A DNA stretch of 64,000 nucleotides, taken from TPA_inf: Saccharomyces (taxonomy: Eukaryota). This document shows, in pieces, positions 36,794-40,639 of the stretch; positions within the stretch are counted from its first letter, which is position 1, and the number at the start of each line of letters is the position of its first letter. A model generated the notes under the pieces. It was not told the DNA's origin and did not search any database. It saw nothing but the letters and a program-made list of their open reading frames with translations. Both the position numbers and the translations under genes were made by a program. The stretch is from the NCBI GenBank assembly GCA_000146045.2, contig BK006947.3, positions 320,001-384,000 of the forward strand, read 5' to 3'.

Positions 36794-37010
36794 TCACCGA
36801 TTACCGCCCCGCTCAGCAGGACGGTTTAAGCTTCTGTTCTTGGAAACGACGTAATTCATGTCGGCCATCGAAATCATTCCTGGCTTTGTAATAGTCATAA
36901 TGAACAAGGAATGCTGTCTTGGGTTTTTTTCCCTTTGCGAATACCCGGGCTGCCAAAATAGAAAAGGAACAAATGGTAGGTCTTTAAGATAAGAAAGATA
37001 AGATAAGACA

Positions 37011-37044
<34 letters not shown>

Positions 37045-37186
37045 CCGATAACAAAGAAGAATCCTTCGGTCTCTTCTTACTGCTGTTACTGCTTATCAAG
37101 AGTGTCTGGTAATAGTCAAAGCCAGATAAGATAAGAAATGTAAAATCGACTATTTCCCTCGTAAAAAGCTTCAATTGCTCACGCAT
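36794..37186 (-). CDS. Questionable ORF (130 aa, position of YNL143C) whose reading frame runs through a 42-nt poly(A) tract encoding a Lys run
   Basis: Open frame only. An AAA run of 12 or more codons encodes the Lys run. It lies inside the MEP2 promoter region. Confidence 0.25.
36988..37135 (+). promoter_or_regulatory. Cluster of six GATAAG (GATA-factor; Gln3/Gat1 nitrogen-catabolite-repression) sites flanking a poly(dT) tract in the MEP2 promoter
   Basis: GATAAG occurs at 36988, 36997, 37002, 37125 and 37130, and as CTTATC at 37092. The cluster lies 320-465 bp upstream of the MEP2 ATG. MEP2 is a classical NCR-regulated gene. Confidence 0.75.
37013..37054 (+). repeat. Poly(dT) homopolymer of about 42 nt (poly(dA) on the MEP2-antisense strand)
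   Basis: Uninterrupted T run counted directly from the sequence. Confidence 0.95.
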
Positions 37187-37452
37187 CGACGAATACTAAG
37201 CGGCGTGAAGACCCTGTGCCTTATCAATGAAGTATTCAGTACAAGAGGTGTTCATTCCGAGCCACTTTTCTGCACCATATATAAGCAGTAGTTACACATG
37301 TGCTAACCAAACATCAGTGGGTAGTAATCATTCGTGCTTTCACGTCCTTTCAAATTAAATATCCTTCTTAAATAATAAGTCTGCACAGAGCTTTGAAAGA
37401 AGTTTAGTTTTGTAATATATCATACTTAATATATTACAATACAATATCAACA

Positions 37453-38952
37453 ATGTCTTACAATTTTACAGGTACGCCTACAGGCGAAGGAACGGGTGGT
37501 AACTCGTTGACAACAGATTTGAATACACAATTTGACTTGGCCAACATGGGATGGATCGGTGTGGCTTCAGCAGGTGTGTGGATTATGGTCCCAGGTATCG
37601 GTTTATTATATTCTGGTTTATCCAGGAAAAAGCATGCTTTATCCTTGCTTTGGGCCTCGATGATGGCTTCCGCCGTGTGTATTTTCCAATGGTTTTTCTG
37701 GGGATACTCATTAGCTTTCTCACACAACACTAGAGGTAACGGTTTTATTGGTACCTTGGAATTCTTTGGGTTTCGTAACGTTTTAGGAGCCCCATCTAGT
37801 GTCAGTTCTCTTCCCGATATACTGTTTGCCGTTTACCAAGGTATGTTTGCCGCAGTCACCGGTGCCCTAATGCTAGGTGGTGCCTGCGAGAGGGCAAGGT
37901 TGTTTCCTATGATGGTGTTCTTGTTTTTATGGATGACTATTGTTTATTGTCCTATTGCATGCTGGGTCTGGAATGCCGAGGGTTGGTTGGTCAAATTGGG
38001 TAGCTTGGACTATGCAGGTGGTTTATGTGTCCATTTAACATCTGGACATGGTGGTCTAGTTTACGCTTTGATACTGGGTAAGCGTAATGACCCTGTTACA
38101 CGTAAAGGGATGCCCAAGTACAAACCACATTCCGTCACCTCGGTGGTTTTAGGCACAGTGTTCTTATGGTTTGGTTGGATGTTCTTTAACGGAGGCTCTG
38201 CAGGTAATGCAACTATACGAGCATGGTACTCTATTATGTCCACAAACTTAGCTGCTGCTTGCGGTGGCTTGACATGGATGGTTATCGATTATTTCAGATG
38301 CGGAAGAAAGTGGACTACAGTTGGTTTGTGTTCAGGTATCATCGCTGGCCTAGTGGGTATCACCCCAGCCGCCGGGTTCGTGCCAATCTGGTCAGCCGTT
38401 GTCATTGGTGTGGTTACTGGTGCAGGATGTAACCTTGCTGTTGACTTAAAGAGTCTATTGCGCATCGATGATGGTCTAGATTGTTACTCTATCCATGGTG
38501 TGGGTGGTTGTATTGGTTCTGTATTAACTGGTATCTTTGCTGCAGACTATGTAAATGCCACTGCAGGCTCTTACATTAGTCCAATTGATGGTGGCTGGAT
38601 CAATCATCACTATAAACAAGTTGGTTATCAATTAGCAGGTATATGCGCTGCACTAGCCTGGACTGTTACTGTCACATCTATCTTGCTTCTAACTATGAAT
38701 GCCATTCCATTTTTAAAACTAAGATTAAGTGCTGATGAGGAAGAATTAGGTACCGACGCTGCTCAAATTGGTGAATTTACATACGAGGAATCCACTGCTT
38801 ACATCCCAGAACCAATCAGATCTAAAACATCGGCACAAATGCCACCTCCTCATGAAAACATTGATGATAAGATTGTGGGTAACACAGACGCAGAAAAGAA
38901 TTCTACGCCTTCCGACGCTTCTTCTACTAAGAACACTGACCATATAGTATAA
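37453..38952 (+). CDS. MEP2: High-affinity ammonium permease / ammonium sensor Mep2 (Amt/Mep/Rh family)
   Basis: 499-aa ORF with 11 predicted TM helices and Amt signature motifs (DYAGG, HGGLVYALILGKR, the twin His). Confidence 0.95.
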   Translation: MSYNFTGTPTGEGTGGNSLTTDLNTQFDLANMGWIGVASAGVWIMVPGIGLLYSGLSRKKHALSLLWASMMASAVCIFQWFFWGYSLAFSHNTRGNGFIGTLEFFGFRNVLGAPSSVSSLPDILFAVYQGMFAAVTGALMLGGACERARLFPMMVFLFLWMTIVYCPIACWVWNAEGWLVKLGSLDYAGGLCVHLTSGHGGLVYALILGKRNDPVTRKGMPKYKPHSVTSVVLGTVFLWFGWMFFNGGSAGNATIRAWYSIMSTNLAAACGGLTWMVIDYFRCGRKWTTVGLCSGIIAGLVGITPAAGFVPIWSAVVIGVVTGAGCNLAVDLKSLLRIDDGLDCYSIHGVGGCIGSVLTGIFAADYVNATAGSYISPIDGGWINHHYKQVGYQLAGICAALAWTVTVTSILLLTMNAIPFLKLRLSADEEELGTDAAQIGEFTYEESTAYIPEPIRSKTSAQMPPPHENIDDKIVGNTDAEKNSTPSDASSTKNTDHIV

Positions 38953-39343
38953 TGATATACTCAAGCAGACTATGATTTTATGTTTAATCTTTATGTAACG
39001 CTTCATTTAATAATTTTATTTTTAATATTTGATATATTTTCTTTTTTTGATAACTCCGAATGATGAGGGGAGACGTTAGTATTACTTCTCTTGTCTTATG
39101 TTATTATCATAATCGATGACTTTAACTGTGCACACTATAATATACAGCATCTCCAGAGCATGATAGCAAGAAATTTTCTTTAAGAAAGCCTCTATATACC
39201 CTATATATGCTGTTAACAGGAAAAGAGCACAAGGTTTATTTTGCTTTGGTTGCAAATTTTCATCGCTTATAGAAGACATATTTTGATGTAAAAACCTTGA
39301 TATACTTCCTTTTTGCCTTATCTTTCACTGTTTCCATCTCTTT

Positions 39344-39345
<2 letters not shown>

Positions 39346-39388
<43 letters not shown>

Positions 39389-39389
39389 A
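39346..39389 (+). repeat. Poly(dT) homopolymer of about 44 nt in the AAH1 promoter / MEP2 3' region
   Basis: Uninterrupted T run counted directly; it is preceded by further T-rich sequence. Confidence 0.95.
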
Positions 39390-39595
39390 ATCTTAAAATT
39401 CTCGAAACTGCACTGAAATGGCGCAGGAAACTGACCTCATCGCATGCCAACGAAGATTGAAAAAAATTAACATATAAGGCTTATGAAAGCGACATCTTTT
39501 GCAAATGAATAATTGACAAGCAGGCCTGTGTATTTATAGTTATTTTGAAATAATAACTACCATTAGAACTAACAAAAGAAAAGAAAAAAAAAATA

Positions 39596-40639
39596 ATGGT
39601 TTCTGTGGAGTTTTTACAGGAGTTACCAAAATGTGAGCATCACTTGCATTTGGAAGGTACTCTAGAACCTGACCTATTGTTCCCATTAGCTAAAAGAAAC
39701 GATATAATTCTACCTGAAGGTTTTCCTAAATCGGTCGAGGAATTAAACGAAAAGTATAAGAAGTTTCGTGATCTGCAGGATTTCTTAGATTACTATTATA
39801 TTGGTACTAATGTCTTGATTAGTGAACAAGATTTCTTTGATTTGGCGTGGGCCTATTTTAAAAAAGTTCACAAACAAGGCTTGGTCCATGCTGAAGTGTT
39901 TTACGACCCTCAGTCACATACATCTAGGGGCATCTCCATAGAAACAGTCACTAAAGGTTTCCAAAGAGCTTGTGACAAAGCCTTCTCTGAATTTGGTATT
40001 ACATCCAAGCTAATTATGTGTCTGTTAAGACACATTGAACCAGAGGAATGTTTGAAAACTATCGAAGAAGCTACCCCATTTATTAAAGATGGTACTATCT
40101 CTGCCTTAGGATTAGATTCTGCTGAGAAACCATTTCCCCCACATTTATTTGTTGAATGTTACGGAAAGGCCGCCTCATTGAATAAAGATTTAAAACTAAC
40201 TGCACACGCAGGTGAAGAAGGCCCCGCTCAATTCGTCTCGGATGCTTTAGACTTGTTGCAAGTAACAAGAATCGATCACGGTATCAACAGTCAATACGAC
40301 GAGGAGTTATTGGATAGGTTGTCGCGCGACCAGACCATGCTAACTATTTGTCCTCTCTCCAACGTGAAGCTACAAGTAGTCCAATCCGTTTCAGAGTTAC
40401 CACTACAAAAGTTTCTTGACAGAGATGTTCCATTTTCTTTAAATTCTGATGACCCCGCCTATTTTGGTGGTTATATCTTAGATGTCTACACTCAAGTTTC
40501 GAAAGATTTCCCACACTGGGACCATGAAACATGGGGTCGTATCGCTAAGAACGCCATTAAAGGTTCATGGTGTGACGATAAAAGAAAGAACGGTTTGTTA
40601 AGTAGAGTGGACGAAGTAGTCACTAAATATTCGCATTAG
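39596..40639 (+). CDS. AAH1: Adenine deaminase Aah1 (adenosine/adenine deaminase fold)
   Basis: 347-aa ORF carrying LPKCEHHLHLEG (metal-binding HxH), SLNSDDPAYFG and a deaminase-family C-terminus. Confidence 0.93.
   Translation: MVSVEFLQELPKCEHHLHLEGTLEPDLLFPLAKRNDIILPEGFPKSVEELNEKYKKFRDLQDFLDYYYIGTNVLISEQDFFDLAWAYFKKVHKQGLVHAEVFYDPQSHTSRGISIETVTKGFQRACDKAFSEFGITSKLIMCLLRHIEPEECLKTIEEATPFIKDGTISALGLDSAEKPFPPHLFVECYGKAASLNKDLKLTAHAGEEGPAQFVSDALDLLQVTRIDHGINSQYDEELLDRLSRDQTMLTICPLSNVKLQVVQSVSELPLQKFLDRDVPFSLNSDDPAYFGGYILDVYTQVSKDFPHWDHETWGRIAKNAIKGSWCDDKRKNGLLSRVDEVVTKYSH

Follow-up and report, generated by a model that had tools for sequence, protein, structure and literature searches.

Poly(dA:dT) tracts are among the best-studied promoter elements of yeast. 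Nucleosome depletion grows with tract length genome-wide, such tracts resist nucleosome formation, and in Saccharomyces cerevisiae promoters a coding-strand arrangement has evolved in which poly(dT) lies upstream and poly(dA) downstream of the centre of the nucleosome-depleted region (NDR) (Barnes and Korber 2021). RSC moves nucleosomes in one direction, leaving them shifted to the 3' side of poly(dT) (Krietenstein 2016; Barnes and Korber 2021). Where T-tracts follow open reading frames (ORFs) on the non-template strand, RNA polymerase II (Pol II) pauses and terminates in vitro and in vivo, and nascent 3' ends accumulate at them in vivo (Han et al. 2023). In the yeast genome, 102 perfect tracts reach 21 bp or more, and 94 of them lie in R-loop-prone regions (Wahba et al. 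2016). Unstable tandem repeats in yeast promoters are reported to confer transcriptional evolvability (Vinces et al. 2009). Here we describe two long runs of T in a 64-kb stretch of S. cerevisiae DNA (64,000 nucleotides of contig BK006947.3; hereafter the window), one upstream of the ammonium permease gene MEP2 and the other between MEP2 and the adenine deaminase gene AAH1. We consider it likely that both tracts are poly(dA:dT) promoter elements of the canonical yeast type, each belonging to its own downstream gene and grown to extreme length by slippage, and that the second tract also serves as a terminator.

Homopolymers of at least 10 nt were listed across the window. Tract 1 is an uninterrupted run of 32 T (T32) at 37013..37044, with a C at either end, and tract 2 contains an uninterrupted run of 42 T (T42) at 39346..39387, both on the + strand. 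T42 is preceded by TTTTC, and with this prefix tract 2 spans 39341..39387 (+), T accounting for 46 of the 47 bases from 39341. The third-longest A/T run in the window is 15 nt. A model of independent and identically distributed bases predicts 4e-12 runs of 32 nt or longer and 3e-17 of 42 nt or longer, indicating that neither T32 nor T42 is a compositional accident. Both are perfect dA:dT runs above the 5-10 bp minimum for a poly(dA:dT) promoter element, and both are intergenic and carry T on the + strand upstream of + strand Pol II genes: T32 at -440..-409 relative to the MEP2 ATG, and T42 at -250..-209 relative to the AAH1 ATG, 394 nt past the MEP2 stop codon. The original prediction had described two T tracts of about 42 and 44 nt, on one strand and spanning 37013-39389. 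There are indeed two uninterrupted T runs at these places and on the same strand, and the start coordinate is exact; the lengths are 32 and 42 nt, only T42 exceeds 40 nt, and the stated end overshoots by 2 nt. The tracts exist, though their lengths were miscounted, and the interpretation of their kind and location is broadly right.

The ORF at 37453..38952 (+) encodes S. cerevisiae Mep2, the high-affinity ammonium permease, matching PDB entry 5aex over 499 of 499 residues (1152 bits), and is an S288C-type allele (G352). The upstream activating sequence of nitrogen-regulated genes (UAS-NTR) consists of two or more GATAA(G) sites spaced 15-35 bp apart. As judged from motif content only, the region around tract 1 is of this type: seven GATAAG sites and one GATAAC lie in 36988..37225, compared with 43 GATAAG sites in the whole 64 kb. 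Three of the GATAAG sites (36988..37007, +) lie directly 5' of tract 1 and form the upstream half of the MEP2 GATA activating region, GATAAC (37047..37052, +) begins 2 nt 3' of T32, and the other four GATAAG sites follow within 180 bp, at 37092 (-), 37125 (+), 37130 (+) and 37220 (-), together spanning 37092..37225. With GATA motifs in this arrangement on both sides, T32 is embedded in the predicted GATA-factor activating region of MEP2, as had been proposed for a tract in the MEP2 promoter within a GATAAG cluster. A likely MEP2 TATA box, TATATAAG, is located at 37278..37285 (+), ~235 bp downstream of tract 1; TATATAAG is also found in the upstream regions of five other species, and S. arboricola has TATATAAA. 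Besides an ORF of 130 amino acids (aa), only ORFs of up to 89 aa are present in the 2.3-kb YNL144C-MEP2 intergenic region, and no structured RNA or tRNA was found near either tract.

AAH1 occupies 39596..40639 (+) and encodes a member of the adenosine deaminase family (PF00962); identical or near-identical database members of this ORF carry the name Aah1p. T42 ends 208 bp from the AAH1 ATG, which agrees with the predicted distance of ~200 bp. The core of a PAC (polymerase A and C) motif, GCGATGAG, which has four matches in the window versus 0.87 expected, lies in the AAH1 promoter at 39436..39443 (-), 49 bp 3' of tract 2, and is kept in 5 of 6 species. It is followed at 39458..39468 (+) by TGAAAAAAATT, which we take to be similar to the ribosomal RNA processing element (RRPE) and which reads TGAAAATTT in S. 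mikatae and S. kudriavzevii. PAC and RRPE together are the signature of the ribosome-biogenesis regulon, and the PAC and RRPE-like combination would fit the shut-off of AAH1 at quiescence entry. A run of 10 A (39584..39593, +) at -12..-3 of the AAH1 ATG forms with T42 a two-sided poly(dT)...poly(dA) arrangement; this A10 is shortened to A5 in four haplotypes. Directly 3' of T42, at 39389..39418 (+), the sequence AATCYTCGARAnnGCACTRAAA is kept across six species. At the other end of the intergenic region, a conserved A/T-rich stretch (~38955..39050) closely follows the MEP2 stop codon and resembles the 3'-end region of that gene, which would make T42 mainly a part of the AAH1 promoter.

Both tracts lie on the poly(dT) side, upstream of the presumed NDR centre, and AAH1 has the A10 run on the downstream side as well. 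Since this orientation matches the evolved poly(dT)-upstream arrangement, we take each tract to be a probable nucleosome-excluding element of its own promoter. From the literature cited above we infer nucleosome depletion, RSC involvement, termination, R-loop formation and any effect on expression at these tracts, and the following mechanism can be proposed. RSC would read the tracts directionally, pushing nucleosomes 3' of poly(dT), that is, toward the gene. T32 would keep the MEP2 GATA-factor sites accessible to Gln3, Gat1 and Dal80, and T42 together with A10 would hold open an AAH1 NDR that carries the PAC and RRPE-like motifs, with T42 as its upstream edge. Because T occupies the non-template strand here, 394 nt beyond the MEP2 stop codon, a position on the MEP2 coding strand expected of a T-tract terminator, T42 probably also helps to terminate MEP2 transcription; acting as a T-tract site for Pol II termination, it could shield AAH1 from MEP2 read-through. 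The extreme lengths would have been reached by replication slippage, with selection acting on the presence of the element and not on its exact length.

The two tracts resemble several described systems without being identical to any of them. Like the yeast promoter homopolymers that have been tested by mutation, they are perfect homopolymers placed by activator sites, a class that acts through DNA structure and nucleosome exclusion and whose effect grows with length. Those homopolymers, however, are ~10-30 nt long, compared with 32 and 42 nt here, and lie beside a Gcn4 site, whereas T32 lies between GATA sites. With the NDR elements read by RSC (Krietenstein 2016; Barnes and Korber 2021) they share the 5' position of poly(dT), the 3' poly(dA) at AAH1 and the G:C caps present at both tracts, but the genome-wide classes end at "15 or more" nt and the tracts here are 2-3 times longer. 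Similar to the Pol II T-tract terminators (Han et al. 2023), T42 is on the non-template strand past the MEP2 ORF and past the likely poly(A) region; in contrast, the CYC1 and TAH1 sites have much shorter tracts and depend on their flanks, and T42 lies ~300 nt past the likely MEP2 3' end, nearer to the next promoter. Both tracts (32 and 42 bp, perfect and in unique sequence) exceed the 21-bp threshold above which 94 of 102 polyA tracts form DNA:RNA hybrids (Wahba et al. 2016), and both are candidates for such hybrids. As in the unstable promoter tandem repeats (Vinces et al. 2009), a hypermutable repeat lies in a promoter region that is presumably nucleosome-free and apparently varies between strains, except that much of the variation at the MEP2 and AAH1 tracts may be technical.

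The orthologous sites were examined in other Saccharomyces. Syntenic loci were obtained by exact-protein look-ups of cluster members and of upstream-gene orthologues and were compared in alignments A1 (site 1, tract 1) and A2 (site 2, tract 2). The loci were from S. mikatae (L022 and L030), S. kudriavzevii (L027), S. arboricola (L021), S. uvarum (L029) and a uvarum-like genome (L032), from a non-cerevisiae chromosome of S. pastorianus (L023 and L024), presumably of the eubayanus-type subgenome, and from a contig that is probably S. paradoxus (L025), whose upstream-gene orthologue is 84% identical. The results showed that a T-rich element occupies the same position in 7 of 7 lineages at site 1 and in 6 of 6 at site 2. 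The flanks are conserved as well. At site 1 they consist of GATAAG and GATAAC, with two of the three GATAAG motifs 5' of tract 1 invariant in A1 and GATAAC kept in 5 of the 6 sequences that reach that position (GATAGC in S. mikatae), and at site 2 of a conserved block and PAC. The length of the element differs widely. At site 1, the T32 of S. cerevisiae corresponds to at least T24 in the paradoxus-like contig, which ends within the tract and covers site 1 only, to T26 in S. mikatae, to T9 in S. arboricola, to TTTTCTTCTTTCTTTTT in S. kudriavzevii, to TTTTTTCTTTCCTTTT in S. uvarum and to TTTTTTTCTTTCCTTTT in the eubayanus-type sequences. At site 2, the counterparts of T42 are T10 within a 40-nt T-rich stretch (S. 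mikatae), ~45 nt of T/C with a longest run of T8 (S. arboricola), an interrupted run (S. kudriavzevii), T17-GG-T7 (S. uvarum) and, in the two eubayanus-type loci with the same Mep2 protein, TTTTCTTTTTGTTTTTT (L023) and at least T30 (L024). Overall, the pure runs are T32, at least T24, T26, T9, T7, T6 and an interrupted T5 at site 1, and T42, T10, T8, T17, T6 and at least T30 at site 2. These alignments indicate that the T-rich element is retained across lineages with its length free and that long pure T runs arose more than once. In S. uvarum, site 2 also has an A11-C-A12 sequence ~50 bp upstream of T17.

Within S. cerevisiae, 18 chromosome-scale or large contigs besides the window report lengths of 8-45 nt at each of the two tracts, with identical flanks. 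Six of them (L001-L006) have zero single-nucleotide polymorphisms (SNPs) relative to the window over 4.7 kb and differ from it only at the tracts, tract 1 measuring 10-33 nt and tract 2 measuring 8-45 nt. The lengths of the two tracts rise and fall together (Spearman coefficient of 0.95 for L001-L006 plus the window, n=7, and 0.75 over all 17). An assembly method that shortens both tracts would produce such co-variation and independent slippage would not, which points to assembly error. The shortest values come mainly from the CP0055xx records, which we take to be Illumina-based. Each of the 12 Logan short-read contigs examined (2.32-2.35 kb) has one end at or within tract 1 and the other within tract 2, retaining up to 28 and 25 T, respectively. 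Histograms of the longest contig per block showed no block with MEP2 on a contig of 5-50 kb, and in all 77 blocks with a longest MEP2 contig below 50 kb, which cover two Mep2 alleles, MEP2 is on contigs of at most 5 kb. Contigs that end at both tracts in every sample indicate that both tracts are long enough to stop short-read assembly, and short-read contigs that share the Mep2 allele of an assembly reported as T12/T18 retain no fewer than 24-25 and 21-23 T at the two ends. Much of the apparent length polymorphism is therefore probably technical.

The differences between strains may be mostly sequencing or assembly artefacts, with true tracts of ~30 and ~40 nt in most strains. The zero-SNP assemblies, the co-variation of the two lengths, the longer T ends of contigs sharing the Mep2 allele of the T12/T18 assembly and the arrest of every sampled short-read assembly at the tracts all favor such an account, but three assemblies with the CANC prefix, apparently from one project, differ independently at the two sites (20/34, 28/33 and 19/22 for tract 1/tract 2), one T45/T28 assembly reverses the order seen in the reference, and the interruptions in other species cannot be length miscalls. 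We regard the case for and against a mostly artefactual origin as evenly balanced, and because the CANC-prefix assemblies, the T45/T28 assembly and the other species differ, some real length variation between strains is likely. The published slippage rate climbs steeply with run length, and short-read detection fails past about 13 nt; the tracts are both slippage-prone and error-prone, and both may contribute to the observed spread. The original prediction of strain-to-strain polymorphism is thus right in kind but unproven, for the 8-45 nt range in 18 assemblies is confounded with assembly error, and its warning that the tracts are error-prone in sequencing is borne out by the short-read contigs. 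In L003 and L004, which are otherwise identical to the window, the TTTTC before T42 (39341..39345) is missing and the run is merged into T38-T39, which may reflect a genuine variant or an error in the consensus.

Several observations weigh against this reading of the tracts. MEP2 is strongly induced under low nitrogen and its promoter contains a TATA sequence (TATATAAG), and TATA-type, strongly induced genes have NDRs that are less dominated by poly(dA:dT). At both sites other species have runs of T5-T10 or interrupted runs, which argues that 32-42 nt are not required. At four other genes, removing tracts that were 21 bp or longer left mRNA levels unchanged (Wahba et al. 2016), suggesting that length above some threshold may not affect expression. 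No paper that dissects either tract or names it a promoter element was found in the literature searched, which included papers on the MEP2 promoter. A rival reading is a neutral microsatellite expansion, in which a T-rich core of ~8-15 nt would be functional, the extra 20-30 T neutral, and the differences in length would tune nothing. Such an expansion would account for the unchanged mRNA after those four deletions, for the sites of S. arboricola, S. kudriavzevii and S. uvarum with only T5-T9 or interrupted runs, for the patchy occurrence of long pure runs (S. cerevisiae, the paradoxus-like contig and S. mikatae at site 1; S. cerevisiae, S. uvarum and one eubayanus-type contig at site 2), and for a spread of reported lengths within the species with no preferred value. 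It is harder to reconcile with the genome-wide scaling of nucleosome depletion with tract length, with the altered expression that promoter repeat length causes at other yeast genes, and with the unexplained difference in MEP2 allele-specific expression and GATA footprint between two strains. A neutral expansion is quite possible, although we lean slightly against it. The strain difference comes from a study of F1 hybrids between a wine and an oak strain, in which the wine-strain MEP2 allele was more expressed in low nitrogen and the GATA footprint differed; counts were based on SNP-informative reads, and SNPs overlapping insertions or deletions (indels) or low-mappability regions were excluded. 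Tract 1 might be a spacer of variable length within the MEP2 GATA region, shifting the balance between Dal80 repression and Gln3/Gat1 activation, and a possible cis variant. Paired GATA sites 15-35 bp apart are the preferred target of the Dal80 repressor in vitro. The gap between the last GATAAG (37002) and GATAAC (37047) equals the length of tract 1 plus 7 bp, so with strain lengths of ~19-45 nt the spacing straddles this preferred range. The idea is speculative, and we consider a spacer role quite unlikely.

Tract 1 is also part of YNL143C, the minus-strand ORF of 130 aa at 36794..37186, which overlaps the MEP2 upstream activating region and reads the tract as ten lysines; the literature already lists T32, as the "32 adenines" of this dubious ORF. 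An ATG-initiated ORF of this length spanning the tract raises the prospect of a poly-lysine stretch in a real gene, and YNL143C is the sole yeast ORF that combines all polybasic features of a published screen and its tagged product has been measured on blots. We find a coding function very unlikely, however. In 16 assemblies all three frames are used after the lysines, with ends at 62-130 aa, indicating that the frame is not conserved, and the tract 1 lengths are evenly spread modulo 3 (5, 6 and 6). A deletion of 1-2 nt in the T run at 36924, present in every non-S288C haplotype, shifts the frame a second time, Pfam contains no match to the ORF, ribosome profiling gives it little coverage, and it overlaps conserved MEP2 GATA sites. 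We view YNL143C as an ORF that is very young or due to chance and that overlies a promoter element. The two tracts had further been proposed to bracket MEP2. T32 and T42 lie 2302 bp apart, enclosing MEP2 and most of its promoter; ~2 pairs of tracts of at least 21 nt within 2.3 kb are expected by chance from 102 tracts in about 12 Mb, a number that drops to 0.07 for an assumed 20 rarer, longer tracts, and two tracts of at least 21 nt at this distance are not unusual in themselves. MEP2 and AAH1 lie in tandem on the + strand, both with poly(dT) upstream as is usual, and this accounts for the two tracts being on one strand. The flanking of MEP2 follows from two neighbouring promoters and makes no special unit; each tract belongs to a different promoter, no evidence of joint action was found, and the bracket interpretation is unsupported. 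One form of joint action would be unequal recombination or circle formation between the tracts as perfect direct repeats of 32 and 42 nt, giving gain or loss of the 2.3-kb MEP2 unit when ammonium is limiting, a condition that selects for MEP2 amplification. The published copy-number variants of MEP2 are segmental or whole-chromosome aneuploid, and none is reported to be bounded by the tracts. One ammonium-limited evolution experiment and a serial transfer under fluctuating nitrogen starvation yielded no MEP2 amplification, the 2.3-kb unit is duplicated or deleted in 0 of 18 assemblies, and the unit would leave out the three upstream GATAAG sites, all of which make this mechanism extremely unlikely. 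MEP2 is recurrently rearranged in S. cerevisiae x S. uvarum hybrids, but the paper on these events says nothing of homopolymers or of hotspots at the tracts, and this lead was set aside. Finally, poly(dA:dT) tracts deplete nucleosomes at origins too, and the MEP2-AAH1 intergenic region might be a replication origin with T42 as the nucleosome-excluding flank. It has one exact 11-bp match to the autonomously replicating sequence (ARS) consensus, TTTTATGTTTA at 38976..38986 (+), 24 nt after the MEP2 stop codon, but the window holds six ARS consensus matches versus three expected, which is not significant, and the match is 360 bp from T42, too distant for an origin flank. We give an origin next to no credence.

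A few additional features of MEP2 were observed. Codon 352 of the Mep2 ORF in the window (38506..38508) encodes Gly, as in the S288C allele, and Ala352 is found in 5 of the 6 other Mep2 sequences retrieved, those of S. arboricola and S. pastorianus among them; in a published evolution experiment, ammonium limitation favoured Ala at codon 352. In the S. uvarum lineage (L029, L032 and L033), an (ACTAT)n microsatellite lies just 5' of the MEP2 ATG, at about -90..-40 in L029 (as the reverse complement), and the short-read contig L033 stops within it. The 90%-identity protein cluster that contains Mep2 also contains 347-aa Aah1 proteins. This shared cluster looks like a clustering quirk, perhaps with a fused gene model across the T42 intergenic region as the bridge.

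Elements of this kind are already known, both instances belong to a class, tracts of 21 bp or more, that has been catalogued genome-wide (102 tracts), and as a discovery the finding has little weight. Variant calls and "polymorphism" at the two tracts are untrustworthy without long accurate reads obtained free of polymerase chain reaction (PCR), and YNL143C, which is cited as an extreme natural poly(A)/poly-lysine ORF, is to be treated as a dubious ORF. A hypermutable tract between the MEP2 GATA sites, which SNP-based analyses did not examine, provides a directly testable hypothesis. If tract 1 does act as a spacer of variable length, it could be the unmapped cis variant behind the difference in MEP2 expression and footprint between the wine and oak strains.

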